Positions 7,526-49,967 of a stretch of 59,258 bases of DNA are shown in pieces. Under the pieces are notes generated by a model. The model did no database searches, was not told the DNA's origin, and saw only the letters and a list, made by a program, of their open reading frames with translations. The translations under genes and the position numbers were made by a program. Within the stretch, counting starts at the first letter, position 1. Every line of letters begins with the position of its first letter. The DNA is from an uncultured bacterium. GTDB taxonomy: Bacteria > Hinthialibacterota > Hinthialibacteria > Hinthialibacterales > JAKPRU01. The stretch spans positions 1 to 59,258 of the forward strand of contig CAZTDD010000026.1 of assembly GCA_964612675.1 (NCBI GenBank), read 5' to 3'.

Positions 7526-7543
7526 GATTTCCTCCAGACAAAA

Positions 7544-31393: not shown

Positions 31394-32086
31394 TCAGCCG
31401 CTTTGCGCGATGGTTGCGATACATTGATCCTCGCGTACAACCTTCCGGGGACCGCCGTCGTATCCGGTTGACCAATCGTGCGGCGCGGCGATTTCGGTCA
31501 ATCGATCCAGCATGCCGATTGCCTTTGCACGGTCATAGATCAACTGCCAACCACACTCGAGATCCGGATTCACTTCACATTTCCCATCGCGGGAACCTCC
31601 ACACGGACCATTGAACAACCGTTTGGCGCAGCGGCTGATCGGGCAAATTCCCGCGAATTCTCCGAGTCGGCAATTGCCGCAACCGACACACTTCTCGGTC
31701 CAAACGCCTTGCGATTCGAGAATCCCGATGAATTGCGTATTGAGGCCCGGATAAACCGGGGTTTGCGGAAAGCGCTCTGCCAGCGCCTGAACCCCCGCCC
31801 CGCAACCCAATGAGCAGATTGCGTCGTACCCGGCGGCCCGCTGGGCCAGAATATCGATAAATGCGTCTTCGCATTGGCGTTCAATAGTACATTCGTCTAC
31901 AACAACATTTCCACGACCGGCCAATTTCAGGGACATGCGTAACGCCGCCCCCAGGATATTTGTTTCACGTTCCCCGCCGGCCAAACAGACCGTAACACAG
32001 GTACCGCATCCGACAAGCAACACCCGGTTGTGGTCTTTGACCATATCGCGAATTTCCGGAACTGTTTTTCGATCCGCAACAATCAT
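31394..32086 (-). CDS. MetV-like Cys-rich protein (MTHFR C-terminal-type domain)
   Basis: Cys clusters GCGTCVTVC, CGAG, CVGCGNC and NGPCGG...CE resemble the acetogen MetV family. Confidence 0.55.
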   Translation of the reverse strand: MIVADRKTVPEIRDMVKDHNRVLLVGCGTCVTVCLAGGERETNILGAALRMSLKLAGRGNVVVDECTIERQCEDAFIDILAQRAAGYDAICSLGCGAGVQALAERFPQTPVYPGLNTQFIGILESQGVWTEKCVGCGNCRLGEFAGICPISRCAKRLFNGPCGGSRDGKCEVNPDLECGWQLIYDRAKAIGMLDRLTEIAAPHDWSTGYDGGPRKVVREDQCIATIAQSG

Positions 32087-32165
32087 AGAATTTCTCCAAA
32101 AAGGAATTCCCAGCGATGAATCGCTGGGCTATTATCGTTCGTCCATCGGACGGTCCGTCAGGCTT

Positions 32166-32612
32166 TTAGTCTGGGACCGAAATTGCTTCCACCTCTTCGT
32201 GCCCTTTCGGTATGGGACTGGGTCCCAGTCGGGCGACACGTTCGCTCATTTCAGTCACGATTTCAGCGAACCGCCCACCCTCCGCAGAAGAAAGGTTGAA
32301 CATTTCGAGACGTTCGGGTTCTAGACCGATTTCTTCAAGAAGCTTTTTGGCGCGTTCGACCCGTCGACGTGCACGCAGGTTCCCTTCGAGGAAGTGACAA
32401 CCGCCTTCGAGACAACCGGCAACCATCACAGCGTCTGCGCCGCGTTCGAATGCAGCCAGGATATGATTGATCTCGACTTTTCCCGTACACGGTAGCCTCA
32501 ACACCCGCACGTTCTGCGGGTATTGGAGGCGCATCGAGCCTGCCAGGTCCGCAGCCGCGTAGGCGCAATAATGACAACAGAAAGCGAGTATCAGCGGTTC
32601 TTTTTCTGCCAT
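32166..32612 (-). CDS. mvhD: MvhD/FlpD-family iron-sulfur protein
   Basis: FCCHYCAY...CTGKV...GADAVMVAGC.EGGCHF.EGN signature. Confidence 0.85.
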   Translation of the reverse strand: MAEKEPLILAFCCHYCAYAAADLAGSMRLQYPQNVRVLRLPCTGKVEINHILAAFERGADAVMVAGCLEGGCHFLEGNLRARRRVERAKKLLEEIGLEPERLEMFNLSSAEGGRFAEIVTEMSERVARLGPSPIPKGHEEVEAISVPD

Positions 32613-32618
32613 TCGACT

Positions 32619-35600
32619 TTATCCTTTGTGCCAGCGCGGCGGGGCGACTCCCACAAGTTCAGGGTAAGCCAATTCCGTTTCCTCTTTTCTCGCGCCGAGC
32701 AAGCTGTTTACCGCCCCCAGGATTTGCGCGTTCATGTAGTGACGCAGTTGAATTGCCCTGGCGGGACACTCTGCGGTGCAACTCCCACACCCCATACAAA
32801 CCGCCTGTTGAATGACCGCTTTGTTGTCCTGACCGACGGTTGGGGCCATGTATGGGCAAACATGAACGCAGGTCATACAGGAGATGCATTGGTCGGGATC
32901 GACCCATGCGATTTGCGCACTGACCGGCATTTCCTTCTTTGAGAGGATGGAGGCGGCACGCGCGGCCACCGCGTTCGCCTGAGAAATCGTCTCAGTGATG
33001 AATTTCGGCGCATGAGCGGTACCACAGAGGAAGAGTCCTTCGCTCGCGAAATCGACCGGACGCAGTTTCATATGGGCTTCGAGGAAGAAACCATCTGCGT
33101 TTAGCGGTACCCGAAGCAATTCCGACAATTCTTCTCGATCCGCTCGTGGGACCATCGGTGCGGCAAGAACAACCGTGTCCGGATGGATTTCCATTTGGCT
33201 GTTGAGAGAAGGTTCATTAAACCGAAGACAGATGCGTTGTCCTTCGACCGTCAACTCGGGAGGAGTTTCCTGCTCGTAACGAACGAAGAGTACACCTTTT
33301 TCACGCGCCTCGCGGTATGCCGCCTCACGGAATCCGTAGGTGCGCATGTCGCGGTATAGGATCACGATCCGCGCCTTGGGATACCGCTCCAGAAGCAACA
33401 GAGCGTTCTTAACGGCAGTTGTACAACAAACACGACTGCAATACGGATGCTCGTCGTTACGCTGCTCGACACACTGAATCATCGCAATCGTGGGCTCTTC
33501 CGGGATTCCCAGATCCTGCCGCGCCATCCGGTCGGTCAGTTCGAGCTGTGTCACCACACGATTGCTCTTACCGTAACCGAATGAAGACGGCTTCTTTTCC
33601 GTCGCGCCGGTCGCAACCACCACAACGCCGTGTTCAACCTCTTCGACATTCCCGTTCGAACTCAACTGCGAGGTGAATTCGCCAATGTGTCCGTCAACCT
33701 TGTCGATATGTGTATTGAGGTGAACCGTGATCAGCGGGTTTTTCTTTACATTCTCAACGGTATGGGACAGGAATTTCTGAATGTCGTCGCCATCGAGAGT
33801 ACGGTGGATCTGTTGAGCAGTGCCTCCAAGGCGTTCGCCTTTCTCGACCAGATGAACCGGAAATCCCTGCTCCGCCAATGCCAAAGTCGCTGTCATTCCC
33901 GCAATGCCTCCACCGACCACAAGGGCGGCATTGTTGATAGGAACGGTTTCCTCCTCCAGAGGCTGGAGGTTTGCAGCGCGACCGACAATCATACGAATGA
34001 GGTCAATCGCCTTCTCTGTGGCTTTCTGCGGATTGTCGGAATGAACCCAGGAACATTGATCGCGAATGTTCGCCATCTCCAGAAGGTACGGATTCAAACC
34101 GGCGTCCCGTAATGTGTCACGGAAGATCGGTTCATGGGTTCGGGGTGTACAGGAAGCGATAACCACGCGATTGAGGTGCTCATCACGGATGATTTTCTTG
34201 ATTTGATCCTGCGTATCGTCCGCGCAGGTATAGACACTGTGATCCGCGAAAACCACGTTCGGTAGTCCTCGTGCGCGTTCAACAACCTTTTCGATATCGA
34301 CCACGGAGGCGATGTTGCTGCCGCAGTGACAGATGAAAACACCGACTCTCGGCGGCTCGTCCGTGATGTCTCGTTCCTGTGGATAGGATTTCGTACGGAC
34401 TTCCGTGCCCCGTGCCGCTGAAAGCAACGCCATTGCGCGGGCCGCCGATCCGGTTGCCTGCATCACCGTATCGGGGATGTCTTTCGGCTCCTGAAAAACC
34501 CCGCCCACAAAGACACCCGGACGGGAAGTCTCGAGCGGAGCCAGTTCACGGGTTTTCGCGAAGCCCCATTGGTTTAGTTCGACGCCAATCTTTGCCGCTT
34601 GCTCCCGAATCGACTCGCTCGGTTCCAAGCCGAGTGAGAGGATAACCATGTCGAACTCTTCTTCGACCTGCTTTAGGTCGGAGCTGAAGTAATTCAACCG
34701 AAGGTTATGCGTGCCGGGCATTTCGTAGGTCCGAGAGACAAAAGACCGGACATAATGAATGCCCATTTTCTTTGCGCGCTCGCAGTAGCGGTCAAAGTCC
34801 TTGCCGAAAGCACGCAGATCGAGAAAGAACACCGTCATGTCCAGATCCGGCTCGTGCTCTTTCGCCAGGATGGCCTCTTTTGTTGCCGCCATACAGCAAA
34901 TCGACGAACAGTAATCGTTACCGCATCCGTTGTCGCGCGAACCGACACATTGAATGAACGCCAATCGTTTGGGTTTCTTGCCGTCGGATGGTCGGACGAT
35001 GTGCCCTTCGGTCGGTCCGGAAGCGGACAGGATTCGTTCAAACTGCACATTCGTGACAACGTTGGGAGCAAATCCGAAACCGAACTCGCCCCTGCGCGTT
35101 GCATCGAACGCATCGAAACCCGGTGTGAGCAAGACCGCACCAACGTCTAGATCGAAAGACTTCTCAGGTTCGAAATGATTGATCGCCCCGGCCTGGCAGG
35201 CTTCCACACACAGCATGCATTCCGCGCACCCCGCACATGCCAGACAACGCCGCGCTTCCGCCTGCGCTTCGTCTTCACTGTATGTCGCTTCCACCTCCCG
35301 AAAGTCCGATAGCCGTTCGACAACAGGGACTTCCTGATGTGGAACGCGAGGAGCGCGTTTTGTTCTCTTTTTGATTTTTGCGAGTTCCTCATCCGAAAGT
35401 GGGTTCAACCGTTTCTCGCGCTTCGAGAGTCCCTCTTGAACCGGCCTTTCGGCAAGATAGTTGTCGATAGCCTGTGCCGCCTGTTTCCCGTGCGCGATTG
35501 CGTCGATCACGCTTGACGGGCCGACGACCACATCGCCTCCGGCAAAGACATTCTCACGTGATGTAACCATCGTGACCTCATCGGTCTCGATGGTCCCCCA

Positions 35601-37145
35601 GCGCGATGTTTTCAGTTCGAAAAGCTGTGCGAGTTTCTGGTCGGCCGATTGACTAACCGCCGGAATGAGAGTGTCTGCCTCAATTGTGAACTCGGAACCT
35701 TCGACCGGCACCGGACGTCGGCGGCCGCTTTCATCGGGTTCGCCCAATTCCATGCGGATGCATTCGATGGCGGATACACGATTGTTCTCGGATCGAACTT
35801 TCGTAGGCGCTGCGAGATAGTGGATTTTGATATCCTCAGCCAAGGTAGCGTCGATTTCCGATTCGTCGGCAGGCATCTCTTGGCGCGTACGTCGATACAC
35901 AATAGTGACTTCGTCCGCTCCGAGCCGTTTCGCCGTTCGCGCAACGTCGACCGCCGTGTTGCCGCCCCCGATAATCACAATTCGTTTCCCTGCCCCTGTC
36001 GGTTCACCGAGGGTGTGTTTTCGGAGGAAATCGACACCGTGGACAACTCCCTCGGTATCCTCTCCTGGAATCCCGAGTTTTCGACTGTGATGAGCCCCCG
36101 TCCCCACGAAGATCGCATCGAATTGGCTCTCCATTTGTTCGACGGAAATGCCGTCGCCAACAGGAGTCGCCGTCTTGAATTCGACACCGAGAGATCGAAT
36201 CCCGTCGAGATCCCGCTTCAGGATATCGGGTGGAAGTCTGTATTGGGGGATTCCGACTGCCAACATTCCCCCCAGAACGGGCAGCGCCTCGAAAACGGTA
36301 ACGTTATGGCCCTTAAGAGCCAATGAGTGGGCCGCTGCCAGCCCTGCTGGTCCGGAGCCGACAATCGCAACCGATTTGCCGGTCGATTGAATTCCTTCAG
36401 GTGGTTCGCTTGAAGGATACAGATCCATTGCAAACCGTTTCAGGCCGCGAATATTGACCGGTTCGTCGATCGCGCCTCGATTGCATTCACTCTCACAGGG
36501 GTGAAAACAGACACGCCCGCAGATCGAAGGAAGAGGATTCTCGCGGCGAATTACTTCAGCGGCCTCTTTGAATTTTCCGTCGCCGATAAGAGCAACGTAG
36601 GCTTGGACACTGTGATCGATGGGACAGCCCGAACTGCAGGTCGCACGACCGTTTTTCTGGATGACATTCGCATTCGGAGCCGCCTGGGCGTATACACGAT
36701 CGATTGCCTTCCGTGTCCCGAGACCGGCGTCGAACTGACTCGGAAGATCCACGGGACATACTTTTGTACAGTCGCCGCATGCCGTACATTTATCGACGTC
36801 GATAAAACGCGGCCGTTGACGAATCGTGGCTTTGAAATTCCCTTGGTCTCCTTCAAGTCCGTCCAACTCCGCCATTGTATAAACGTCGATGTTGTGATCC
36901 CTCAAACATTCGACGAGTTTTGGTGAAATAATACAGGTAGCGCAGTCGCCGGTTGGGAACGTTTTATCGAGGCGGGACATGCCTCCACCGACAGCCGCGT
37001 TCTGCTCAACGAGATAAACACGAAACCCGGCCGCCGAAAGATCCAGGGAAGCCTGTATCCCGGCGACGCCCGCACCGGAGACCAACACCGCGCCGCGCGG
37101 TTCTTTGCCATTTGTCGAGGATGTCTTCTGCTGGACTTCACTCAT
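32619..37145 (-). CDS. 1508-aa HdrA-family fusion: HdrA(N) + ferredoxin + GltD/NfnB-like NAD(P)H-FAD module + ferredoxin + HdrA(C) + second complete HdrA-like module + ferredoxin
   Basis: GAGVAGIQASLDL and TFPTGDCATCII (HdrA). ICGRVCFHPCESEC with GSGPAGLAAAH and RMELGEPDESGRRRPV (GltD-like). CVGSRD..YCSSICCM (HdrA core). A second AALVVGGGIAGM..CVEQRNDEHPYCSRVCC module follows. Stop/start overlap with hdrB. Confidence 0.85.
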   Translation of the reverse strand: MSEVQQKTSSTNGKEPRGAVLVSGAGVAGIQASLDLSAAGFRVYLVEQNAAVGGGMSRLDKTFPTGDCATCIISPKLVECLRDHNIDVYTMAELDGLEGDQGNFKATIRQRPRFIDVDKCTACGDCTKVCPVDLPSQFDAGLGTRKAIDRVYAQAAPNANVIQKNGRATCSSGCPIDHSVQAYVALIGDGKFKEAAEVIRRENPLPSICGRVCFHPCESECNRGAIDEPVNIRGLKRFAMDLYPSSEPPEGIQSTGKSVAIVGSGPAGLAAAHSLALKGHNVTVFEALPVLGGMLAVGIPQYRLPPDILKRDLDGIRSLGVEFKTATPVGDGISVEQMESQFDAIFVGTGAHHSRKLGIPGEDTEGVVHGVDFLRKHTLGEPTGAGKRIVIIGGGNTAVDVARTAKRLGADEVTIVYRRTRQEMPADESEIDATLAEDIKIHYLAAPTKVRSENNRVSAIECIRMELGEPDESGRRRPVPVEGSEFTIEADTLIPAVSQSADQKLAQLFELKTSRWGTIETDEVTMVTSRENVFAGGDVVVGPSSVIDAIAHGKQAAQAIDNYLAERPVQEGLSKREKRLNPLSDEELAKIKKRTKRAPRVPHQEVPVVERLSDFREVEATYSEDEAQAEARRCLACAGCAECMLCVEACQAGAINHFEPEKSFDLDVGAVLLTPGFDAFDATRRGEFGFGFAPNVVTNVQFERILSASGPTEGHIVRPSDGKKPKRLAFIQCVGSRDNGCGNDYCSSICCMAATKEAILAKEHEPDLDMTVFFLDLRAFGKDFDRYCERAKKMGIHYVRSFVSRTYEMPGTHNLRLNYFSSDLKQVEEEFDMVILSLGLEPSESIREQAAKIGVELNQWGFAKTRELAPLETSRPGVFVGGVFQEPKDIPDTVMQATGSAARAMALLSAARGTEVRTKSYPQERDITDEPPRVGVFICHCGSNIASVVDIEKVVERARGLPNVVFADHSVYTCADDTQDQIKKIIRDEHLNRVVIASCTPRTHEPIFRDTLRDAGLNPYLLEMANIRDQCSWVHSDNPQKATEKAIDLIRMIVGRAANLQPLEEETVPINNAALVVGGGIAGMTATLALAEQGFPVHLVEKGERLGGTAQQIHRTLDGDDIQKFLSHTVENVKKNPLITVHLNTHIDKVDGHIGEFTSQLSSNGNVEEVEHGVVVVATGATEKKPSSFGYGKSNRVVTQLELTDRMARQDLGIPEEPTIAMIQCVEQRNDEHPYCSRVCCTTAVKNALLLLERYPKARIVILYRDMRTYGFREAAYREAREKGVLFVRYEQETPPELTVEGQRICLRFNEPSLNSQMEIHPDTVVLAAPMVPRADREELSELLRVPLNADGFFLEAHMKLRPVDFASEGLFLCGTAHAPKFITETISQANAVAARAASILSKKEMPVSAQIAWVDPDQCISCMTCVHVCPYMAPTVGQDNKAVIQQAVCMGCGSCTAECPARAIQLRHYMNAQILGAVNSLLGARKEETELAYPELVGVAPPRWHKG

Positions 37146-38029
37146 TGCGATTCAACTCCACAAGCCGCTGTCTTATTTCCGAACAAAGGTTCCGCACTCA
37201 CAGTCAGCGCTGTTAGACCGAGTTCCTCTGAGGACAGTCCCAACGCGAGTCCTAGAAGCTGTGTTATATAAAGCACGGGCGTATCGGAGATACCGCCGTG
37301 AGCTTGTCTCATGTCCGATTGCCGTAGGTCGAGATTGGCCTGACATAACGGACACGCAACTACCAAACAATCTGCGCCGGCCTCACGCGCCATAGTGAGG
37401 AGTCTGTAGCCAAGACGGCTTACGACATCGGAATTCGTCAGCGACAGCCCTGCACCGCAGCATTCGGTTTTGTAAGGCCAAGAGACGGAAAAAGCTCCGA
37501 CCGCCTCAACCAGCTCGTCCATACACGTCGGATTCTCCGCATCGTCGAACGCAACCACTTCCGGTGGCCGCGACAAGAGACAACCATAATAGCTCGCGAC
37601 ACGCAAACCTTTCTGAGAAGCAGTGACCTTCCTGCGAATCACGTCCGGTCCGATATCGTTCATTAACACATCGAGGATATGGCGCACTGCCACGCTACCG
37701 TCATAGGAACGGCCCACGATGCGGTTGGTTCGCTCTCGCTCTTCGGGATTGTTCTTGACCTTGTAATTGGCTGTCCGAAGACGCGCATAACAGGAGGCAC
37801 AAGCGGTCAGCACATCGAGCCCCATGGTTTGAGCCTTTTGGAGGTTCATCACAGGCAGCGCCACCGCGAGAGAAGCGTTGCTGGTATGCGCGGGAGTCGA
37901 TCCGCAACACACCCAGTCCGGTATTTCCTCGAGCTCAATATCCAAAGCCCGGCATAGCGCTCGGGTCGAGCGATCGAAATCCCAAGCCGTCGATTCAAGA
38001 CTACAACCGGGATAATAAGCGTATTTCAC
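37142..38029 (-). CDS. hdrB: heterodisulfide reductase subunit B (two CCG domains)
   Basis: Duplicated C..CCG..C...C motifs (WVCCGSTP and TECCGAG). Confidence 0.9.
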   Translation of the reverse strand: MKYAYYPGCSLESTAWDFDRSTRALCRALDIELEEIPDWVCCGSTPAHTSNASLAVALPVMNLQKAQTMGLDVLTACASCYARLRTANYKVKNNPEERERTNRIVGRSYDGSVAVRHILDVLMNDIGPDVIRRKVTASQKGLRVASYYGCLLSRPPEVVAFDDAENPTCMDELVEAVGAFSVSWPYKTECCGAGLSLTNSDVVSRLGYRLLTMAREAGADCLVVACPLCQANLDLRQSDMRQAHGGISDTPVLYITQLLGLALGLSSEELGLTALTVSAEPLFGNKTAACGVESQ

Positions 38030-38592
38030 CGCTTCCTCTCCTCTTCTTGGGCTCGGCGAAAGACCTCTCTAACCTCGCCCGCGCTTCCGCTGCGCGATGG
38101 GAGAAGAGAGAGTTTTCCTTTCGAGAACATTTTCGGTGCTTTGTCTACGTCGGAAAAGAAGTCGCCGGATCGGATTTTGTAGGCGGTCAACATGCCCAGT
38201 TCGAAAACGCGCCCGTGACGGCGAACGCTCTGCAGAAACGAACGATTGAACCGCTCTCCGCGCGAGTCGGGAACCGACACTTTTCGCTCAACCGCCATCA
38301 TCCGCAGTGTGTCCATGACGGCGGCGATGTCAATTCCCATAGGGCAGCGCGTTGTACAGGCTTCACACGACGCACACAGCCAGATAGCGCGCGATTCGAG
38401 AGCCTTCGATTCCTCGCCGAGATGAATCAGACGCATAATCTGACTGGACAGAAAATCCATTTCCGGAGCAACCGGGCAGCCGGTTGAACACTTGTGGCAT
38501 TGGAAGCACGCACTAACCGGAGTGCCGCTGCGGCGTTCCACCTCGTGCAAAAAGCGAGTCTCTTTCCATTCAACTGTTGAAGTCATCTTCAT
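38026..38592 (-). CDS. hdrC: heterodisulfide reductase subunit C (2x[4Fe-4S])
   Basis: CFQCHKCSTGCP and CASCEACTTRCP. Confidence 0.88.
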   Translation of the reverse strand: MKMTSTVEWKETRFLHEVERRSGTPVSACFQCHKCSTGCPVAPEMDFLSSQIMRLIHLGEESKALESRAIWLCASCEACTTRCPMGIDIAAVMDTLRMMAVERKVSVPDSRGERFNRSFLQSVRRHGRVFELGMLTAYKIRSGDFFSDVDKAPKMFSKGKLSLLPSRSGSAGEVREVFRRAQEEERKR

Positions 38593-41261
38593 TCACTCAA
38601 TAATTCAAAATCGGGTTCCGGCTCTTCCTGTGCCATGGCGCTGGGAACGACTTTCCGATACACCTCGAATGGTTTCCGCAACACGCCATCGACAGTCAAA
38701 AGGTCTCGTTCGATCTCTATACCGAACAGACGCTCGTTCTCTCGCAGATAGGGTAGTATCAATTTCCAGTCTTCGGCTGTAAGCGATTGGTACGCTCCGG
38801 CGTTGAGCTGTTCCTGCACAAGCGTGCGATGCGGATCGCGAACGTAAATCGCGCCTCCGGAGGCCAGAGAAAGCAGATTGCTGCCCGGGTAAGGCAAATC
38901 CAGAGGAACGACACGGCCGTTCTCATCGAATCGGATACCATTCACAATTGCGAATCCGCCTCCCTTGAGTGGGTCGCCCGCCATGAACGACTCCGCCAGG
39001 AAATCGAGAGCGGTTCCGTTAATCACCACCCGGGGTTTCCCGACAGCGTTGATCATCGGCCTCCCGGCGGCGTTCCCCATGACATAGAATTCCCCGCCCT
39101 TCGCACCGTAAAGAAACGTCTGACCGACGTCGCCGTAAATCACGATTTTGCCTCGTTTGGCAATTTGGCAGAGCTGATCCTGCGCGTTGCAATGAACAAG
39201 CGCTTCGAGACCGTCTAGACCGGACCCGAGATAATCGCCGGGATTGTCATAACAATCCACACGAAGCCCGTCGGAGCTGGGACCGAAACCGGCCGCGTGA
39301 AAACGCGTCCCCCGCGTGTTGTAATGGATCAACCATTTCCAGCCGAGCTGGTAGGCATCGACCGCGAGTTTCGCGTCGCACGTCGGACCTTCGGGTGTAA
39401 AACCTCTCGCGTCAATCAAAAGGACTCTTTCGCCCGGGCGAGGTTCGCGGAGATCTTCACGTATCTCCCAATTCACTCTGCGACATGTTGACTCCGCTGT
39501 ATCGGTAAGAAGCGGTTGGCTCTCGAAAATCTTTCCAAGCCCGTCACGCAGAATGGTCAGAATGGAACTTCGCTTTTTCTCTCCGGTTGGATACTGACGG
39601 TCTAAACAAAGGGTCAATGCCTGGATACCGAGAAGCGGGTTGCTCTCTCCGCTTCGTTTTGCCGTTTCATCGACAAACCACCGAAGGCGGTCGTATGTCA
39701 TTTCCGCGAGAGAATCGCGAAAATACTCAAAAATGACTACAGGATTGTTACTCTCAATCGCACGTTGAATTTCCGCAGCGTCTCGCTCGCGTTCCTGCTC
39801 GGAAGGGGTCTTTAGTTCGGCGGTTGGTTTGTAAGCAACCTGATTTTGAGGCACCGTTACAGGAAGGCCGAACTTATTCGTCACTTGCATCGAGTAATGA
39901 CCGTTGCTGCCCGCAGAGCCGTTCGACGGGACAACATTCATCGCAAATGCCCCACCGTCCGAGTAACTTCCACCGCGCGCGTTCCAGTACATATCCGCAA
40001 CAGGCCGGAAACGGTTGTCTTCGGACGACAAACTGGCCAACGTCGCATCAATCGCCTGTTTTTCGGAACAGATCAACCCGGTAGAGACTTCGCCTTCCTG
40101 TAACGCGAAAACTTGCGGCCGCAGCATCGCTGTATCCGTGATTCCAACCAATTGATAGCCGGCTTCTTTTCCGAGATTGCGCGCAATGATGAAAAACCAC
40201 GGACCGTCGGGCGATCCGTGCATATGTGCCGCCTGGATTTGACGATAAATCCGACGCTTGTCCGCAGCCAACCGGTCGAAGTCCAGTTCGGTAGTCGGTG
40301 CGAGCGCTTCGATGATGTATTCCAGGGGATACTTGTATGTCCGGTTCATTAAATCGAAAAGAAGTACCGAGACTTCAGTATCTGTAATAAACAATGGAAA
40401 TAGATTCCGCTGCGCAAGATACTCGCTGACCGAAACATAATTGGCAAAGTCGCCGTTATGTACCAGCGCTTCGTTCATCCCAATGAACGGGTGGGCTCCG
40501 CCGGGATGCCATACACGACCACGCGTTGGATAGCGCTGGTGAGCGATCCACACATGGGCACGTAAATCCGGCATCCGGTAATACTGAACCGCAGCCTCGG
40601 CGTATCCCACGATTTTAATGATAAAGAGATTCCGAGCGTGCGAGAGAACGAAAGCCCGCTTCTCGCCCAAAGAAGAATAGAATTCCGTATTCAACAGAAA
40701 CGAATTCTGAAAAACAAATTCATCCTCGATTTCGCGTTCGGGAAGATGAGTCAGTCCTTTTTCCTGAGCGAACTGTGCGAGGACGTCCGACTTCACACGA
40801 ACGAAATACCGGGCGACTTCCGGGGGTTTGATCTCCAGCAATGGTACGTCCCGGTAATCGTCGACAGTTGGAATCACCCCTCCCTGATGAATATCGAAGT
40901 ATGGCTCGATACGGCTCTTTTCGACATCCTTCTGCGCCTCAGGATCCAAGAGGGCGATTTGGAGGATATAGTCTTCGTCGATCTCTTTTTGCGTGACGCC
41001 CAGATCCTCGGGCACAATCCCGCATGCGGCAATTCCGCCTCCCCGTCCGTTTCCGCGATTCCGCATTTGGATGGAGGGCTCGTAGATGTGACGGCCCCCG
41101 ACAGGGACGGTACAAGCGAATCCCGTCACACCGCAGCCGCCCTCGGCTTCCGTGGGTTTTGGGAACCAGGATTCGCCCTCTTTAGGCCGCAGATGGGATC
41201 GCGACCGAATCAGCATATTGGCCCGATTCAAGTTATTGATTTCCATTGTCTTTGAACTCAT
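38589..41261 (-). CDS. glutamate-synthase-like fusion: class-II glutamine amidotransferase (GltA-like) + GXGXG domain (GltC-like)
   Basis: The GGCGVTGF Ntn-type Cys is preceded by ~40 aa. C-terminal IVIYGDVGQTFLYGAKGGEFYVMGNAAGRPM...NGTALDF GXGXG repeats. Confidence 0.75.
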   Translation of the reverse strand: MSSKTMEINNLNRANMLIRSRSHLRPKEGESWFPKPTEAEGGCGVTGFACTVPVGGRHIYEPSIQMRNRGNGRGGGIAACGIVPEDLGVTQKEIDEDYILQIALLDPEAQKDVEKSRIEPYFDIHQGGVIPTVDDYRDVPLLEIKPPEVARYFVRVKSDVLAQFAQEKGLTHLPEREIEDEFVFQNSFLLNTEFYSSLGEKRAFVLSHARNLFIIKIVGYAEAAVQYYRMPDLRAHVWIAHQRYPTRGRVWHPGGAHPFIGMNEALVHNGDFANYVSVSEYLAQRNLFPLFITDTEVSVLLFDLMNRTYKYPLEYIIEALAPTTELDFDRLAADKRRIYRQIQAAHMHGSPDGPWFFIIARNLGKEAGYQLVGITDTAMLRPQVFALQEGEVSTGLICSEKQAIDATLASLSSEDNRFRPVADMYWNARGGSYSDGGAFAMNVVPSNGSAGSNGHYSMQVTNKFGLPVTVPQNQVAYKPTAELKTPSEQERERDAAEIQRAIESNNPVVIFEYFRDSLAEMTYDRLRWFVDETAKRSGESNPLLGIQALTLCLDRQYPTGEKKRSSILTILRDGLGKIFESQPLLTDTAESTCRRVNWEIREDLREPRPGERVLLIDARGFTPEGPTCDAKLAVDAYQLGWKWLIHYNTRGTRFHAAGFGPSSDGLRVDCYDNPGDYLGSGLDGLEALVHCNAQDQLCQIAKRGKIVIYGDVGQTFLYGAKGGEFYVMGNAAGRPMINAVGKPRVVINGTALDFLAESFMAGDPLKGGGFAIVNGIRFDENGRVVPLDLPYPGSNLLSLASGGAIYVRDPHRTLVQEQLNAGAYQSLTAEDWKLILPYLRENERLFGIEIERDLLTVDGVLRKPFEVYRKVVPSAMAQEEPEPDFELLSE

Positions 41262-41476
41262 ATCCGTCTCGGCTCGGCGGGAGCCTCGCCCTCCCGGGCC
41301 TGTCGCCTTCTGAATTTGGCTCCCCTAGTCCTTCTCGGCTCGGCAGGAGCCTCGCCCTCCCGGGCCTGTCGCCTTCCGGATTTGTCTCACCTAGTCCTTG
41401 AACTCATGTTCGTCTCGGCTCGGCGGGAGCCTTGCCCTCCCGGGCCTGTCGCCTTCCGGATTTGTCTCACCTAGTT
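41262..41476. repeat. three tandem 66-80-bp units, each with a GGGAGGGCGAGGCTCCCGCCGAGCCG hairpin (minus-strand sense), between two operon genes
   Basis: Units start near 41267, 41333 and 41413. Each also duplicates the first ~14 nt (ATGAGTTCAAG) of the downstream gene start. Confidence 0.75.
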
Positions 41477-43039
41477 TTGCGGAGAGCCTTCGTAATCTAA
41501 ATGCGTTAGTAAATCGGTCCGCCCGCGAAGGGCCTGTACTGAGTCGAGTCCCAGGCGATACAAGATGTCGATCAACATCTCGCGCCAGGCGTTGTACATG
41601 TTCACGAGTCTCTGGGTACACCAATCGATGGTGACCATTTCCAGAAGTTCCGGGTCCGTCGTTGCGATTCCGCGTGCACAGCCTCGCCCGCTCTCACAAC
41701 AACCGCATCGGATACAGCCCAGAGCGACAAGTTCCGCCGTGCCGATAATGACGCCATCCGCTCCCAGGGCGATCGATTTCGCAATATCGTCAGGCGTCCG
41801 TATGCCGCCGCTGACCATCAGACTCACTTCATCGCGGACCCCTTCATCCACGAGGAAGCTATGTACCATGTTGATGGCATACTCGATCGGCATCGCAATG
41901 TTCTTTTTCGCGATGTTCGGCGCGGCTCCGGTCCCTCCGTAGCTTCCATCCAGATGAACAATGTGCGAGCCCGCACAATACGATCCGACTGCTACCATAT
42001 CCACATCGGCGGGAGTCGAGACTTTCGTCGAAAGAAGCGCCCGCGGATTGATGTGGGCTATCCAATCGAGATGTTTCTTATGATCTTCGATGGAGTAGAC
42101 ACTGTGAAATGGAAACGGCGAGAAAAGAGACGTACCGACAACCGCCTCGCGCATCCTCGCGACATCGGGAGTATTCTTGTCGCCGAGAAGGTGTCCGCCG
42201 AGGCCCGGCTTGGCACCCTGTGCGTACTTGAATTCGACGATTCGTGCACGTTGAATGGTCTCTTCCCGTACTCCGAATAGTCCGGTGGCGACCTGGGTGA
42301 TCATGTGATCCGCGTAAGGAATCATCCGGTCGGGATATCCGCCTTCTCCCGTGCAGCTGAACGAATTCCAGGCTTTCGCCGCCCGCGCCTTCGCCAACAA
42401 AGCCCGCAGGTTGGTCGACCCGTACGACATCCCGCCACCGTACCACGGAATATCGATTTTCACTCTCGGACGCGAGTCGTTGCGCCGATTCAGTACCAGT
42501 TCCGTAGAAATATCTTCGCGCCGTAAATCCGCAGGCGGAGAGTCCGGGAACAGAAATCGGAGACGATCGAAACCGCCACCGGATGCGCCGATTGCACTTT
42601 CAAGATGGGGCGGCGGCACCTCACCGGTCTCGGCCATCATCCATGTAGCAACCAGCAAATCCGCCGGCCATCGATGATCGCCCATGGTATCGAACGCCGG
42701 ATTTCGGCTGAGGGAGAGCGCACCGACCGGACAAGTATCGATGCAGTAATGGTCCGTCTTGGCACAGTCAAAGCCGATACAACGATAGTCAAACGGACGC
42801 GTCATACGGCGGTATCCCTCGGGACGGACATGCACCTCGTGAGGGCAGGTTTCGACGCATTTTCCACAAGCGATACAGTTGGACGCCCGGAACAGGCTGA
42901 ACTTGCCGATCTCGTTCCGGTAACGTGGCGGCGCGGGATTCAATTCTCTTGAGACCTTTGCGTACTCGGGCTTTGACGCGAATTCATCGCCGCGTTGCGG
43001 GTGAATCGTGGATACATCGGCTGCCGGTGTTGCGTTCAT
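41471..43039 (-). CDS. archaeal-type glutamate synthase FMN-binding (GltB-like) subunit with N-terminal 2x[4Fe-4S]
   Basis: CIACGKCVETCP..CIGFDCAKTDHYCIDTCP, then MVSGGIRTPDDIAKSIALGADGVIIGT FMN barrel, then CIRCGCCESGRGC. Confidence 0.8.
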   Translation of the reverse strand: MNATPAADVSTIHPQRGDEFASKPEYAKVSRELNPAPPRYRNEIGKFSLFRASNCIACGKCVETCPHEVHVRPEGYRRMTRPFDYRCIGFDCAKTDHYCIDTCPVGALSLSRNPAFDTMGDHRWPADLLVATWMMAETGEVPPPHLESAIGASGGGFDRLRFLFPDSPPADLRREDISTELVLNRRNDSRPRVKIDIPWYGGGMSYGSTNLRALLAKARAAKAWNSFSCTGEGGYPDRMIPYADHMITQVATGLFGVREETIQRARIVEFKYAQGAKPGLGGHLLGDKNTPDVARMREAVVGTSLFSPFPFHSVYSIEDHKKHLDWIAHINPRALLSTKVSTPADVDMVAVGSYCAGSHIVHLDGSYGGTGAAPNIAKKNIAMPIEYAINMVHSFLVDEGVRDEVSLMVSGGIRTPDDIAKSIALGADGVIIGTAELVALGCIRCGCCESGRGCARGIATTDPELLEMVTIDWCTQRLVNMYNAWREMLIDILYRLGLDSVQALRGRTDLLTHLDYEGSPQN

Positions 43040-43042
43040 TTC

Positions 43043-44437
43043 CTACTGTGCTCCAACCTGGACCTTCCTCTTTCCAAAGATACGTCCGAATGTGTTGCGT
43101 TCAAGATCCTCAAAGAACATACAGCGGCCTGTTTCGCCGCGCAGACGACGAACCTCACGGATCCCCATAGCGCCCAGCATCTCCAACAGCTGGCTATGCC
43201 ACGCGCTCATCAGATTGACAATCCTCTGGACGGCGTATTCAGGATCGGCTTCGTCCAGCGCGACAGGACACATCTCGCCGTGCTCGCATTCGCCGCAGAG
43301 TCTGCATTCCAATGCGACAATGAGGGGAACATCGATAGCGATCAGGTCCGCTCCGCATATCACCGCTTTGGCCATGTGCTCGGCTAGAGCGATTCCCCCG
43401 GAGGCAATGATGGTTACCTCGTCGCGTGAGCCTTCCTTGACCAATGCGCCGTGTACATCCCGCAAGACATCGCGCATATGTCTCGGATCGGGCGCAACAT
43501 CCTCTTTTCCGTGGATATCGAACCGAATATGAATCACCTCAACGCCTGCCCGGGTCAATTCGAGGACTCGATCCGTGACTCGCGGAGTCGCGAAGAGGCG
43601 TACGGCGACAACCTGGCTGGGGTTCTTTTCTTTCAGTGCTTGACATGTGGAGGAAATGTCGTCCCGCTCCGGTACCATGACCATCGGCGCGGAGGCGAAT
43701 GTCTCGACCTCCGACGGGTCGGAAACCAGTGGAATAATATGTCCTCCGAGCGTCTCTTCAATGATCTCGCTCTCTCGTAAAACGGCCATTGTGCCGATTT
43801 CCGCGGCCGCTTTGGCAACCGACCGTACCACAGGGCCTCTGCACCAATGGTCCGGAATGATGTCGAAAATCAACGGAAGCGGCGTCTCCAGCAACGGGGG
43901 AAAGGGATCATCCTGTCGATCGTCTTGAAAAGTCAGGTGAGACAGTTTTCGGCCGATATCGACGCTTGTGTTGATGTATTCCCGGCCGTGGATACCGTCC
44001 CGGGTGGGCCGCACGATCTCGGACATGTCCGTCCACATGGAATCGAATCCCGAGCCACTGAACGGTCCGCCGTAGCCCGCGCCGGTCACGGGGATTTTGC
44101 CGGTTTCCGCCTGGAACCACGTTGTAAGGATAGTGTCTGGAGTATAATAGTGGTCCCCGAGCCGCCGGTATTCAGGATTCACAACGCGGGTCAGAATCCC
44201 CTTCGTACAGTCCTGAACACAGTTCAGGCAGCCTTTGCACTGATAGATATAGTCGAGATACCCGAGTTCATCGCGCAAGGTATCGGCTTCTTCGCGATAG
44301 AAACCGTAAACACAGCTTCGTTTGACACAATTATGACAGCTGGAGCAGTCTTCCCGCCAATCCACGATTCCGAGTTTGCCGACGGGTCGTGTGCGGGGAG
44401 AGACCGGAACGGGATGGATTGTGTACTTTATTGGCAC
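43043..44437 (-). CDS. second GltB-like FMN-domain paralog with N-terminal ferredoxin
   Basis: CSSCHNCVKRSC..CKGCLNCVQDC, then IIASGGIALAEHMAKAVICGADLIAID, then CRLCGECEHGEMC. Confidence 0.7.
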   Translation of the reverse strand: MPIKYTIHPVPVSPRTRPVGKLGIVDWREDCSSCHNCVKRSCVYGFYREEADTLRDELGYLDYIYQCKGCLNCVQDCTKGILTRVVNPEYRRLGDHYYTPDTILTTWFQAETGKIPVTGAGYGGPFSGSGFDSMWTDMSEIVRPTRDGIHGREYINTSVDIGRKLSHLTFQDDRQDDPFPPLLETPLPLIFDIIPDHWCRGPVVRSVAKAAAEIGTMAVLRESEIIEETLGGHIIPLVSDPSEVETFASAPMVMVPERDDISSTCQALKEKNPSQVVAVRLFATPRVTDRVLELTRAGVEVIHIRFDIHGKEDVAPDPRHMRDVLRDVHGALVKEGSRDEVTIIASGGIALAEHMAKAVICGADLIAIDVPLIVALECRLCGECEHGEMCPVALDEADPEYAVQRIVNLMSAWHSQLLEMLGAMGIREVRRLRGETGRCMFFEDLERNTFGRIFGKRKVQVGAQ

Positions 44438-44439
44438 GG

Positions 44440-45372
44440 CTAATCGATCCTTAGTCCTGTTTTTTGAATCACTTCCAGTGTCGCATCTTCATCGCCGCAG
44501 ATCTCGAATCCCCGCAACCCCTCAATCGATGAGAGCCGCTGAATGGCCTCCACAGCGATGTCGATTCCCGCAGAACGCTGCGCCGTCTCCTCGGTTTGTG
44601 ACTGGATGCGCTCAATGAGAGCATCCGGCACTCTTGGCGATGGACGTTTGGCTGCAAATTCTCTGGCGGACTGCGCATCCGTCAGGATATGGATACCCGC
44701 CAGTATAGCAGTCTTCTTATGGACACCGGTCTCAGCGACCTGTTTCCACCAGATGTCGAAGCGGTCTATGTCGAAAACCGGCTGAGTAATCAGAAACTGA
44801 GCCCCTGCGTTCACTTTCTTCACGACCCGCATCACCTGCAGTTCCATCGGGTCCGCGAAGGGGGAGGCGACAGCACCGAGACAGAACGGACCTGCACCAT
44901 TCAATTGCTCTTGCCCAACAATCGACGCATCGGATTCGATCCTCGAAATTGCCTGGATCAACTGAGTTGAATCGATGTCGAAAACGTTTTTCGCGGCTCG
45001 CGAACGTCCCAAGGTTTGGTGAGCGCCGGTATTGGAGAGAACGTTCCGAATGTTGAGGGCAGCGGCCCCAAGGATGTCGGATAGAAGTGCGATACGGTTT
45101 CTGTCGCGTGTGACCATGTGGAGGATCGGCTCCACACCTTCAGCGTTGAGCAGCGAAGCTGCTGCGAGAGCCGACATCGTGACCCCGTCCCGGTTGTCGC
45201 TCACACCGACGGCATGCACTTTGCCGCTGAGTTTCTTGGCTGCGTTTCGAATCGGTTCGGGATCGGCGCTCGACGGGGGCGCTATCTCGGCAACGACAAT
45301 TGATTGCCCCGATTGGATTCGTTTATGAAGTGCTGTTTTCGCTTTGTCCATTGTCCTCAACCTGTCATACAT
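44440..45372 (-). CDS. metF: 5,10-methylenetetrahydrofolate reductase (acetogen-type MetF)
   Basis: MTHFR TIM-barrel similarity (SIVVAEIAPP..., ...LITQPVFD...). Immediately upstream of the glt-like and hdr genes with a 2-nt gap. Confidence 0.75.
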   Translation of the reverse strand: MYDRLRTMDKAKTALHKRIQSGQSIVVAEIAPPSSADPEPIRNAAKKLSGKVHAVGVSDNRDGVTMSALAAASLLNAEGVEPILHMVTRDRNRIALLSDILGAAALNIRNVLSNTGAHQTLGRSRAAKNVFDIDSTQLIQAISRIESDASIVGQEQLNGAGPFCLGAVASPFADPMELQVMRVVKKVNAGAQFLITQPVFDIDRFDIWWKQVAETGVHKKTAILAGIHILTDAQSAREFAAKRPSPRVPDALIERIQSQTEETAQRSAGIDIAVEAIQRLSSIEGLRGFEICGDEDATLEVIQKTGLRID

Positions 45373-45437
45373 CGAAATGGAATCGGCCGGCTGTTCTGCA
45401 GTGCGTCGTGAGTCGTAAATTCACTCGACAACTTCTG

Positions 45438-45857
45438 TTATTCAGCTCTGAGGAGCGGACTATCACCTAATTCTGCAAACCGGGAAACCGCAGAACGAAT
45501 CTCGTTCTCAAGCTTCTCGGGAGCATCCTCAGGAGAACACTCAAGTAATCGGACCCGGTCGGGTTCAATTCCGATTTCCGAGAGAAGCCGCTGAACAGTA
45601 TGAGTCCGCACCTCCGCTCGATAGTTGCCCTGCGCCAGTCGACATTCGCCTTTCGGACACGCGACAACGCAAACACCGCGTCCGCCTCCTTCAAGAGCAT
45701 GAAAGAGATATTGGATATCGATTTTGCCGCTGCACGGGATCTCCTGGACGCGCACATGTACGTCGTCCTGCTTCCATTGACGGGGGACCTTTGCCCCGTG
45801 AGGTACGCAGTTGTGGCAGACATAAACCAGTACATCGGGACACACAGGATTCGTCAT
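45438..45857 (-). CDS. second MvhD/FlpD-family protein (first gene of the operon)
   Basis: VYVCHNCVP...PCSGKID..LFHALEGGGRGVCVVACPKGECRLAQGN. The ATG at 45857 has an AGGTG RBS; the track start at 45953 lacks one. Confidence 0.75.
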   Translation of the reverse strand: MTNPVCPDVLVYVCHNCVPHGAKVPRQWKQDDVHVRVQEIPCSGKIDIQYLFHALEGGGRGVCVVACPKGECRLAQGNYRAEVRTHTVQRLLSEIGIEPDRVRLLECSPEDAPEKLENEIRSAVSRFAELGDSPLLRAE

Positions 45858-46018
45858 TGGGTTAGCCACACCTACTTTTCTCTTCGATATGGGGTACGTA
45901 CCTCGAATATCGACAAAGGGTACCAAACGGCCTTTGCGGACCGCTGGTCTCATGTATCGAATCCGAGCAACAAGAGAGAGAAATGTTTACTCTGCCAGCT
46001 GGAACCTGTCAACCCTAG

Positions 46019-46038
46019 TTTGGCAATAGATTGCCAAA
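46019..46038. promoter_or_regulatory. perfect palindrome TTTGGCAAT-AG-ATTGCCAAA upstream of the redox operon
   Basis: 9-bp arms and a 2-bp spacer. About 65-160 nt upstream of the first operon start codon, and 60 nt downstream of the FGE gene. Confidence 0.45.
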
Positions 46039-46934: not shown

Positions 46935-47053
46935 CGTCTTATCGCGCACCAGTCCACTAGCCACGTAATATGTGTCCGTCCTAGTATAGCGGAACCATAC
47001 CAGTTCGATGAAAGTACGCAAGATCTTTGCACATCGGAAAGGAGCCGATCGGC

Positions 47054-49961: not shown

Positions 49962-49967
49962 GGTCAA

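Follow-up and report, generated by a model that had tools for sequence, protein, structure and literature searches.

A conserved ten-gene cluster interleaving glutamate-synthase-type genes with Hdr, MvhD, and MetFV genes: a candidate Hdr-wired glutamate synthase in uncultured bacteria

The window analyzed here is a 59,258-nucleotide (nt) stretch of DNA from an uncultured bacterium of the Hinthialibacterota (contig CAZTDD010000026.1 of assembly GCA_964612675.1, positions 1 to 59,258 of the forward strand). Our subject is a cluster in it that combines genes of the glutamate synthase (GltS), heterodisulfide reductase (Hdr), MvhD, and methylenetetrahydrofolate reductase (MTHFR) families, the last represented by MetF and MetV. 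The list of open reading frames (ORFs) for the window places ten co-directional ORFs on the minus strand between positions 31394 and 45953, in the order MvhD'-MetF-GltB2-GltB1-GltAC-HdrC-HdrB-HdrA*-MvhD-MetV. An earlier interpretation made without database searches (here, the sequence-only reading) had given this order and strand but counted eleven genes, against ten names in its own list; its domain calls, for which it had proposed a Pfam scan, are upheld by that scan for all ten ORFs. The genes and associated features, in the direction of transcription, are as follows.

46019 to 46038, no strand assigned: inverted repeat, a candidate operator, unique in the window and just upstream of the promoter-like site.
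45984 to 46012, minus strand: promoter-like TTGACA-17 nt-TAAACA with a weak -10 hexamer, read from sequence.
45438 to 45953, minus strand: MvhD', FlpD family, second MvhD paralogue (Pfam FlpD, 88.8 bits).
44440 to 45372, minus strand: MetF-like flavoprotein with the MTHFR fold (Pfam MTHFR, 99.7 bits).
43043 to 44437, minus strand: GltB2, degenerate paralogue of the flavin mononucleotide (FMN) subunit (Pfam partial Glu_synthase, 58 bits, and Fer4_9).
41471 to 43039, minus strand: GltB1, FMN/iron-sulfur (Fe-S) synthase subunit (Pfam Glu_synthase, E = 1.2e-86, 291.7 bits; Fer4).
41262 to 41470, minus strand: GltB1/GltAC spacer with three tandem-repeat copies.
38589 to 41261, minus strand: GltAC, 890 amino acids (aa) (Pfam GXGXG, 39.7 bits; GATase_6, 24.6 bits, below cutoff).
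38026 to 38592, minus strand: HdrC, 2x[4Fe-4S] dicluster protein (Pfam Fer4_8/17).
37142 to 38029, minus strand: HdrB, two CCG domains (Pfam CCG, 2 stretches).
32619 to 37145, minus strand: HdrA*, HdrL type, 1508 aa, HdrA/GltD/HdrA fusion.
32166 to 32612, minus strand: MvhD, [2Fe-2S] adaptor of HdrA (Pfam FlpD, 172.6 bits).
32109 to 32128, minus strand: hairpin within the 79-nt MvhD/MetV spacer, a possible attenuator.
31394 to 32086, minus strand: MetV, DUF5981, the MTHFR C-terminal Fe-S/zinc-ribbon protein (Pfam, 123.9 bits).

Stop and start codons overlap by 4 nt at three junctions (GltAC/HdrC, HdrC/HdrB, and HdrB/HdrA). These are three of the four such overlaps that had been claimed previously; the supposed fourth, at 45438, is a 65-nt gap, lying between MvhD' and MetF. 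The short gaps reported at the same time are confirmed as 2 nt for MetF/GltB2 and 3 nt for GltB2/GltB1, and the remaining intergenic distances are 6 nt (HdrA/MvhD), 79 nt (MvhD/MetV), and 209 nt (GltB1/GltAC). Translation of MvhD' most likely begins at the ATG at 45857, with AGGTG ahead of it, which would yield a protein of 139 aa; the Pfam FlpD match begins only at residue 41 of the longer ORF. MvhD' is 33% identical to MvhD and keeps five conserved Cys residues.

GltAC was chosen as the search probe for related loci as the most distinctive protein of the cluster. It matches more than 7,600 protein clusters, the best 120 of which are all at least 66% identical to it, and a scan of one genome per species finds a relative in at least 437 genomes. 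Our locus comparison (individual loci carry L numbers) covers the closest 80 of these genomes, all of them metagenome-assembled genomes (MAGs) of uncultured organisms. The carriers belong to the Planctomycetota, Omnitrophota, Binatia, Sumerlaeota, Hydrogenedentota, Nitrospirota, Myxococcota, Geobacteraceae/Desulfuromonadaceae, Armatimonadota, Fibrobacterota, Spirochaetota, Gemmatimonadota, Lentisphaerota, Bacteroidota, Ignavibacteriota, and Desulfobacterales.

When the ten window proteins are searched against these loci with tblastn, the interleaved ten-gene order proves near-universal across more than 12 phyla. Among the 53 loci with enough upstream flank, GltB2 is present in 53, GltB1 in 52, the MvhD-like gene in 49, and MetF in 48; among the 45 with enough downstream flank, the HdrA-like gene is present in 42, MetV in 41, and HdrC and HdrB in 36 each. 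GltB2 adjoins GltB1 in 53 of 53 loci, and the junctions at the module borders are 10 nt or shorter in most cases (MetF/GltB2 in 48 of 55 loci, GltAC/HdrC in 41 of 53). Median identities of the subunits across phyla range from 56 to 81%, with MetV (81%) and MvhD (80%) the most conserved and the MetF-like protein and MvhD' (56 to 58%) the least. Subunits that are 70 to 80% identical are shared among Planctomycetota, Geobacteraceae, Binatia, Fibrobacterota, and others, and the cluster seems to move between phyla as a unit.

Because the interleaved order and the tight junctions are held across more than a dozen phyla at 56 to 81% identity, the cluster is better read as one functional unit than as a set of neighboring operons, and it very probably encodes a single multi-subunit system in which a GltS-type core is joined to an Hdr/MvhD module. 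The sequence-only reading had also proposed a single unit and had staked it on gene neighborhoods in other genomes; there, the glt-like genes lie inside metF...metV in the same order in many phyla, with tight junctions across the modules, and are repeatedly syntenic with hdr and metF.

The variants of the cluster define its core. Minimal clusters of the form MvhD-(MetV-(MetF))-GltB2-GltB1-GltAC, with no Hdr genes nearby, occur in Desulfobacterales, Bacteroidota-like, and other MAGs of a group at 56 to 60% identity (L067, L069, L070, L072, L074, and L078); L080 groups with these minimal relatives lacking Hdr genes. MetF is missing from L067, L069, L074, and L080, and HdrBC from L008, L018, L028, L034, L049, and L063. 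The sole invariant core across the variants is GltB2/GltB1/GltAC, and the MvhD-like protein, MetF, MetV, HdrBC, and the NAD(P)H module are each lost or swapped in some loci.

Within this core, GltB1 aligns at approximately 40% identity over 290 residues to positions 879 to 1170 of the alpha subunit of Azospirillum brasilense GltS (E = 4e-47; PDB 2vdc/1ea0), and a ferredoxin-like 2x[4Fe-4S] domain forms its N terminus. Compared with the A. brasilense enzyme, it keeps QGAKPG and the Arg that follows, SPxPxHxxYSIED, the cluster Cys residues, and a conserved Lys, and the motif QGAKPGLGGHLLG is found in 61 of 63 orthologues. GltB1 therefore has the glutamate-synthase FMN domain, with 2-oxoglutarate and FMN motifs and an Fe-S site. 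It deviates from canonical GltS in two respects: PGEGGQ is replaced by PGLGGH, and there is an extra (fourth) Cys at the cluster site. GltB2, which is 29% identical to GltB1, lacks the segment bearing the GEGG and QGAKPG substrate motifs, keeps the ferredoxin-like N-terminal domain, the FMN-phosphate region, and CxxCxxCx5C, and matches the C-terminal half of the Pfam Glu_synthase family, features that probably mark a structural or electron-transfer paralogue.

GltAC consists of a putative N-terminal nucleophile (Ntn, class II) glutamine amidotransferase domain fused to a GXGXG beta-helix domain. The sequence EAEGGC43GVTG is invariant in a 14-sequence alignment and puts the presumed nucleophilic Cys behind some 42 residues that resemble a propeptide leader; among orthologues, EGGCGV.G occurs in 73 of 76 and HQR[YF]PT[KR]G...HNGD in 76 of 76. 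Family matches of the amidotransferase region are weak (GATase_6, 24.6 bits against a cutoff of 27; GlmS/PurF, E = 1e-6 to 1e-8), and an AlphaFold2 model built from the 14-sequence alignment has a mean predicted local distance difference test (pLDDT) score of 44, so the assignment of this domain rests on its motifs. The C terminus scores 39.7 bits against the GXGXG cutoff of 32.5, with profile matches to FwdC and to the Synechocystis GltS C-terminal domain. Judged by these motifs, the Glt core looks catalytically competent and is probably a true glutamate synthase.

HdrA* begins with an N-terminal piece of HdrA, followed by a GltD-like insert with NAD(P)H, flavin adenine dinucleotide (FAD), and 2x[4Fe-4S] sites (residues ~160 to 640), the rest of HdrA, and a second HdrA-like unit that ends in a C-terminal ferredoxin domain. 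The NCBIfam models for HdrA2 and HdrA match at 965 bits (in 4 stretches) and 746 bits, respectively, each short of its equivalog cutoff, and the insert matches the NAD(P)-binding PRK12771 (579 bits, cutoff 516, residues 160 to 669). The protein contains three dinucleotide-binding GxGxxG motifs, four ferredoxin-type CxxCxxCxxxC motifs, and the Cys signatures CVGSRD..C..CSSICC at 733 to 751 and C..C...CC at 1225 to 1241. A YRR motif after the second Rossmann strand, on our own reading, suggests a preference for NADPH. The NAD(P)H link that had been proposed for this locus is thus borne out, in Pfam, NCBIfam, and motif comparisons, by a GltD-like NAD(P)H-binding module built into HdrA.

The components expected of a bifurcating-type HdrA are all present: HdrA FAD and Cys signatures, ferredoxin domains, an MvhD partner, and CCG-type HdrBC. 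HdrC matches the NCBIfam model for CoB-CoM heterodisulfide reductase subunit C below its cutoff (66 bits), HdrB scores 199 bits against a cutoff of 345, and both HdrB Cys motifs, inspected by eye, appear intact. The insertion point in HdrA is a hot spot, located after residue ~130 to 160 of the backbone, that holds a GltD-like module in the window and approximately 18 loci, a NuoE+NuoF-like module in approximately 35 loci, and no insert in L031 (compare window 32619 to 37145, L001 14200 to 20260, and L031 14129 to 17230). The NuoE+NuoF-like insertions are often called as several ORFs. We know of no description of such a plug-in NAD(P)H-module design for HdrA.

Genes of nitrogen assimilation occur near the cluster in 10 of approximately 79 related loci. 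In L074, amt-glnK-glnA lies immediately upstream; in L080, glnA is 134 nt upstream, and beyond it lie an additional (third) Glu_synthase-like gene of 521 aa and the gene for a sigma-54 activator; and L078 has glnA upstream and carAB with a purF-like gene downstream. Elsewhere, carAB lies downstream of the cluster in L010, gdhA is near it in L003 and L049, amt in L001 and L024, and a PII gene in L081, and NrpR-type regulator genes are situated 35 to 45 nt from it in L049 and L060. The glutamine synthetase genes adjoining the cluster score 551 and 548 bits against a GlnA type I cutoff of 429. No broadly conserved flanking gene emerged across the loci, and neither one-carbon (C1) or methionine genes nor gmaS or mgd-type (mgdABCD) genes recur in their flanks. 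Because the Glt genes are invariant and the recurring neighbors are nitrogen genes rather than C1 genes, the cluster is better viewed as a glutamate synthase with Hdr-type electron input than as an MTHFR enlarged by a Glt module, which is how the sequence-only reading had cast it.

The MetFV-HdrABC-MvhD type IV MTHFR of Moorella thermoacetica, reportedly described by Mock et al. in 2014, is the closest relative by gene content, and we tentatively favor reading the present cluster as an NAD(P)H-fed, HdrA-type, and probably bifurcating glutamate synthase derived from a complex of that kind. The ten genes would form one operon for a large cytoplasmic flavin/iron-sulfur enzyme with a split, archaeal-type, glutamine-dependent glutamate synthase as its catalytic heart. 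GltAC would hydrolyze glutamine and act as a scaffold for the complex, GltB1 would reduce 2-iminoglutarate at its FMN, and GltB2 would probably serve as an Fe-S wire. Electrons would enter from NAD(P)H, here probably NADPH, at the GltD-like module in the tandem HdrA, with NADH as the donor in NuoEF-type variants, and would travel through the HdrA/HdrBC/MvhD/MetV module inherited from the Moorella-type complex.

At the HdrA flavin, the electron pair would be bifurcated. The high-potential electrons would reach the GltB1 FMN by way of MvhD' and the ferredoxin-like domains that GltB2 and GltB1 carry; there, 2-oxoglutarate and glutamine would yield two glutamates, and the others would be pulled through the HdrA ferredoxin domains to a low-potential acceptor such as ferredoxin or flavodoxin. 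The glutamate synthase (GOGAT) reaction with NAD(P)H is exergonic by tens of kJ/mol. In this lineage, the MetF-like subunit would more likely relay electrons as a flavoprotein or have a structural part than reduce methylenetetrahydrofolate (methylene-THF), and HdrBC and the MetV/MetF-like pair might provide a disulfide site, a second outlet, or a relay or scaffold. The gene set, the domains and catalytic motifs, the interleaved synteny, the exchangeable NAD(P)H insert, the missing Asp of the MetF-like protein (see below), and the nitrogen genes beside the cluster in relatives are observations; what we infer is that the subunits form a physical complex, that it bifurcates, which low-potential acceptor it uses, and what HdrBC and MetF/MetV do. 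Bifurcation to a low-potential acceptor, argued from family membership and thermodynamic reasoning, is possible but doubtful.

Several observations weigh against this interpretation. Bifurcation is an argument from economy and not from necessity, since low-potential electrons are not required to make glutamate and a plain NADPH-GltD/GltB enzyme suffices. The model leaves HdrBC, whose CCG motifs are intact, and the very strongly conserved MetV without a role. The MetF-like protein must have a specific task, given that it keeps the equivalents of two catalytic residues (Glu28 and Gln183) and is still approximately 56% identical across phyla, and it may retain residual or altered folate chemistry. 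In GltB1, PGLGGH and the extra Cys may leave room for a substrate other than 2-oxoglutarate. In this genome, transcription could be divided at the 209-nt spacer and at the hairpin ahead of metV, and no nitrogen genes were found beside the cluster in the 59-kb window. As the locus comparison was drawn from the best 80 of at least 437 genomes, the synteny percentages hold for the closest subfamily only; the relatives are moreover all uncultured MAGs, and some bins may be contaminated (e.g., L065, which is labeled Bathyarchaeia).

The alternative implied by the sequence-only reading is a working type IV MTHFR in which the Glt-like module is the hard-wired second redox partner, with NAD(P)H electrons split or joined between methylene-THF and the Glt FMN/Fe-S site and the two reactions obligatorily coupled. 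The full Moorella-type gene set is present, with the HdrC-HdrB-HdrA-MvhD-MetV adjacency, and MetF is found in 48 of 53 loci, 2 nt from GltB2. As the sequence-only reading had also stated, the second redox partner of the Moorella enzyme has not been identified; it is still described as unknown in 2026 (reviewed in PMC5861303 and PMC13040438).

The residues of the MetF-like subunit bear directly on this alternative. We compared the MetF-like protein and 56 orthologues from the loci with Escherichia coli MetF; an HMMER alignment to human MTHFR, which sets ALRGD opposite LSNTGA, agrees with this comparison, as does the SGDHQ of the Asp-type orthologues. The Glu28/Asp120/Gln183 triad of MTHFR is incomplete in the window: the equivalents of Glu28 and Gln183 are kept, in favor of a working reductase, but that of Asp120 is Ala (NTGAHQ). 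At this site, the locus orthologues mostly have Thr, Ser, Asn, or Tyr, and only seven have Asp (L070, L072, and L078, which are of the minimal type, and L008, L017, L059, and L065, the last a full cluster); L065 and the three minimal clusters likewise count in favor of a working reductase. Minimal relatives that have MetF keep the Asp (SGDHQ). Among the 115 motif-matching sequences of the 120 nearest homologues, the site is T in 96, S in 9, A in 3, V in 3, N in 2, I in 1, and K in 1, and Asp in none.

In E. coli MetF, Asp120 makes a bidentate hydrogen bond to the pterin, and with the D120N substitution, Km increases more than 40-fold and kcat drops to 0.3%, leaving a kcat/Km of approximately 0.01% (PMC11094777). 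With the pterin-binding Asp lost, methylene-THF reduction is doubtful for this locus, as is the coupling to it that had been proposed; the MetF-like subunit of the window's lineage is unlikely to be an efficient methylene-THF reductase, although it remains under selection. Other evidence points the same way. Both acceptors are fairly high-potential (the E0' of methylene-THF is -200 mV in the literature), such that neither can be the endergonic branch of a bifurcation, and tying a small C1 flux 1:1 to a large glutamate flux would be physiologically awkward. The flanks lack recurring C1 or methionine genes, and the four variants without MetF dispense with the subunit altogether. A coupled MTHFR is therefore an unlikely account of the cluster.

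A second alternative is a non-bifurcating NAD(P)H glutamate synthase in which the Hdr, MvhD, MetV, and MetF-like proteins are a linear wire or a regulatory or structural scaffold and no second acceptor exists. GltD-like modules ordinarily feed GltB directly, and such an enzyme would be compatible with the intact catalytic motifs of the Glt core, the nitrogen genes beside the cluster in relatives, and the flexible module content seen in the HdrA of L031, which has no NAD(P)H insert, and in the six loci without HdrBC. However, the retention of six extra redox subunits at 56 to 81% identity in more than 12 phyla is hard to explain for a two-subunit reaction, the flavoprotein that bifurcates is HdrA itself in those characterized HdrA complexes that are known to us, and the intact CCG motifs of HdrB imply a further catalytic site. 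We regard the non-bifurcating enzyme as somewhat less likely still.

It is less probable again, and in our view improbable, that the Glt-like module is not a glutamate synthase but performs some other amidotransfer with flavin-dependent imine reduction, for example a reaction like that of N-methylglutamate synthase or one with a different 2-oxo acid, in which the altered MetF-like protein might handle a one-carbon unit or a pterin. The near-constant presence of MetF-like and MetV genes, the PGLGGH and extra Cys of GltB1, and the weak fit of GltAC to amidotransferase models could be accommodated in this way, and N-methylglutamate synthase is a known three-part GltB-like enzyme. Against it, the conserved Lys, Arg, and SPxPxH of GltB1 align with the synthase domain of A. 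brasilense GltS, and the amt, glnK, gdhA, carAB, and NrpR neighbors indicate ammonium, glutamine, and glutamate metabolism. The N-methylglutamate pathway was rejected as a lead hypothesis on two grounds, namely, that no gmaS or mgd genes recur in the flanks and that the adjacent glutamine synthetase is GlnA type I.

Least likely of all is a shared operon of independent enzymes, a ferredoxin-type glutamate synthase, an Hdr/MvhD oxidoreductase, and a MetFV pair that form no complex: the six Hdr-less minimal variants, with MvhD only or MvhD-MetV(-MetF), and the window's 209-nt spacer and internal hairpin would suit it, but the interleaving (MetF at one end, MetV at the other, Glt between MetF and HdrC) is held across phyla with overlaps or gaps of no more than 10 nt at module borders, the cluster seems to travel as a unit, and the MvhD-type adaptor, known to us as a partner of HdrA only, stays with the Glt genes even in the minimal variants.

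The favored reading of an Hdr-wired glutamate synthase can be set against several known systems. The cluster shares with the Moorella type IV MTHFR the same six families (MetF, MetV, MvhD, HdrA, HdrB, and HdrC) and the hdrC-hdrB-hdrA-mvhD-metV adjacency, the Moorella order being taken from consecutive accessions. The Moorella HdrA has more than one FAD and oxidizes NADH (reviewed in PMC5861303 and PMC13040438). In contrast to Moorella, three Glt-type genes and a second mvhD lie here between metF and hdrC, the MetF-like protein is without the pterin-binding Asp, and the carriers are heterotroph-type lineages (Planctomycetota, Hydrogenedentota, Sumerlaeota, Fibrobacterota, and others) and not acetogens.

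The features shared with GltS, both the A. brasilense GltBD (PDB 1EA0/2VDC/6S6S) and the split archaeal type, are an FMN synthase domain with substrate and cluster motifs, Ntn amidotransferase motifs with an N-terminal Cys after a leader, a GXGXG domain, and a GltD-like NAD(P)H module. Unlike in GltS, the amidotransferase and GXGXG domains are combined in one 890-aa protein, the FMN domain is separate and has a ferredoxin-like N terminus, a degenerate FMN-subunit paralogue (GltB2) is added, and the GltD-like module is embedded in HdrA instead of being bound to GltB. Precedent for a GltS core with a swapped electron-input module comes from the F420-dependent, FrhB-linked GltS of methanogens and anaerobic methanotrophic archaea (ANME), in which the input is an FrhB-type F420H2 oxidase (PMC9012536) in place of the HdrA/HdrBC/MvhD/MetFV set found here.

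HdrL of Desulfobacterium autotrophicum HRM2 is a large fusion of HdrA with a glutamate synthase small subunit that has an NADH-binding site and is followed by mvhD (PMC2702500). HdrA* resembles it in carrying a GltD-like NAD(P)H module and in having mvhD 6 nt downstream. The described HdrL loci, however, adjoin dsr, fdh, and other genes and not glt-like genes or metF, and HdrL was thought unique to D. autotrophicum (PMC2702500), whereas the architecture reported here is widespread and its insert is exchangeable with a NuoEF-like one.

The Hdr family is summarized in PMC5861303. Other Hdr-type complexes use HdrA as a plug-in bifurcating unit attached to a catalytic reductase. In MvhADG-HdrABC of methanogens and in BamB-I, the class II benzoyl-CoA reductase of Geobacter, HdrA is combined with MvhD and HdrBC-like subunits, and the Bam complex has a NuoEF-like part as well. 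The catalytic module in our cluster differs from these in being a predicted glutamine amidotransferase/FMN synthase pair, which is not known to have been reported for Hdr-type complexes. With respect to its three-part core, the cluster can also be compared with one redox-neutral enzyme. N-Methylglutamate synthase (MgsABC) likewise has amidotransferase-like, GXGXG, and FMN subunits, but the cluster carries redox-input modules that this enzyme does not need, and gmaS and mgdABCD are not nearby.

Full-text literature searches turned up no description of a glt-hdr-metF cluster, in agreement with the sequence-only reading, which had not recognized the combination as a known complex. A survey of bifurcating enzymes reports MetFV-MvhD-HdrABC in only 25 genomes with no mention of Glt genes, and a GltS-centered review of Fe-S flavoenzymes brings up Hdr only as a bifurcating family in its own right. 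In databases, the parts carry unconnected names, "glutamate synthase" and "methylenetetrahydrofolate reductase." The cluster would thus appear to be new, either as a glutamate synthase with Hdr-type input or as an Hdr/MetFV module with a new catalytic partner.

Nitrogen enters biomass mainly through glutamate synthase, and an Hdr-wired version would be both a new electron-input class for this enzyme and a new catalytic partner for Hdr complexes. The system reaches at least 437 species-level genomes of many poorly studied phyla in peat, sediment, and groundwater. Because current annotation files the cluster under three separate headings (glutamate synthase, methylenetetrahydrofolate reductase, and heterodisulfide reductase), the carrier MAGs have probably been reconstructed wrongly in their metabolism, crediting them with an MTHFR that may not be one and possibly missing a ferredoxin-generating step. 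For the Moorella-type MetFV-HdrABC-MvhD complex, whose coupling partner has been unresolved since 2014, the cluster offers a genetically defined system for testing.

A broader proposal, which we consider speculative and on present evidence doubtful, is that of a widespread and hitherto unrecognized bifurcating glutamate synthase in which the energy of the GOGAT reaction drives NAD(P)H electrons to the ferredoxin level, with the corollary that MetFV-Hdr is a general plug-in with a swappable exergonic partner. If so, nitrogen assimilation would double as a source of low-potential reductant in anaerobic or microaerobic heterotrophs, and the exergonic partner would have been swapped, being methylene-THF in acetogens and glutamate synthesis here.

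Upstream of the first gene, the inverted repeat at 46019 to 46038 (TTTGGCAATAGATTGCCAAA) has the structure TTTGGCAAT-AG-ATTGCCAAA (9+2+9). It had been described as a perfect 20-base pair (bp) palindrome; the 9-bp arms are indeed perfect, but the central 2 bp are not self-complementary, leaving 18 of the 20 bases paired. The repeat occurs once in the window, a match being obtained in 2 of 100 shuffles, and it sits 6 nt upstream of TTGACA-17-TAAACA, which falls below the promoter-scan threshold and can be only inferred to be a promoter. A sigma-54 site (TGGCA-N-TTGC) was considered for the palindrome and rejected, as its spacing is one base less than that of TGGCAC-N5-TTGC.

The core of the repeat, GGCAAT-N2-ATTGCC, is found at 46022 to 46035 in the window and at 3981 to 3994 in L060 (Polyangia), 108 nt upstream of the L060 cluster, with approximately 0.08 exact matches expected by chance in 1.3 Mb. 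Upstream of the other clusters it is at background level, and in the nearest relatives P0002 and P0005 the contigs end before this region. In L060, an NrpR-type regulator gene (18235 to 19173) lies 35 nt downstream of the cluster. No NrpR homologue was found in the window, so a connection between the palindrome and NrpR is only speculative.

The 209-nt spacer between GltB1 and GltAC contains three copies of a unit of approximately 66 to 80 nt that duplicates the gltAC ribosome-binding and start region. Each unit comprises GGCGACAGGCCCGGGAGGGC and a GGGAG...CTCCC hairpin, and in the first, a repeat of the gltAC start (ATGAGTTCAAGG...) gives rise to a mini-ORF of 6 codons. The unit was not found elsewhere in the window, and at the corresponding junction of other loci there is a 4-nt overlap (14 loci) or unrelated repeats resembling repetitive extragenic palindromic (REP) elements, which marks the repeat spacer as lineage-specific.

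A terminator-like GC-rich hairpin, CCCAGCGA-TTCA-TCGCTGGG, with a T-run after it, lies in the 79-nt MvhD/MetV spacer immediately ahead of the ribosome-binding site of metV, where it might act as an attenuator or terminator inside the operon. In the nearest relatives (L082 to L084), the spacer is absent, MvhD has 13 additional residues, and the MvhD and MetV genes overlap by 4 nt; the spacer is therefore a recent insertion. A borderline Rfam match to Acido-Lenti-1 (37.6 bits against a gathering score of 37) covers 32109 to 32152 on the opposite strand. A riboswitch or leader RNA in the spacers was rejected, this match being the only one that Rfam gave and the GltB1/GltAC spacer being unconserved across loci.

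The flanks of the cluster in the window are unrelated to it, with FGE-sulfatase and URO-D family genes upstream and an Mla-type transporter operon downstream, and no Wood-Ljungdahl genes were found in the window. The URO-D family includes uroporphyrinogen decarboxylase and methylcobamide/tetrahydrofolate methyltransferases; its member here, a 407-aa protein at 47027 to 48250 on the plus strand, is two genes upstream and divergent, and is unconserved beside the cluster in other loci. Elsewhere in the window are the biosynthetic genes ilvB, ilvH, ilvC, and panB (5765 to 9310 and 24558 to 25457, both minus strand) and genes of the prepilin-type N_methyl, GFO/IDH/MocA, and DUF4838 families; taken with the FGE-sulfatase genes, this content suggests a heterotroph resembling Planctomycetota. 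Two 408-aa ORFs overlap on opposite strands (16684 to 17910, plus; 16726 to 17952, minus), the plus-strand one having no Pfam match. An encapsulin shell protein gene (Linocin_M18, E = 2e-86) is located at 49152 to 49967 on the minus strand.

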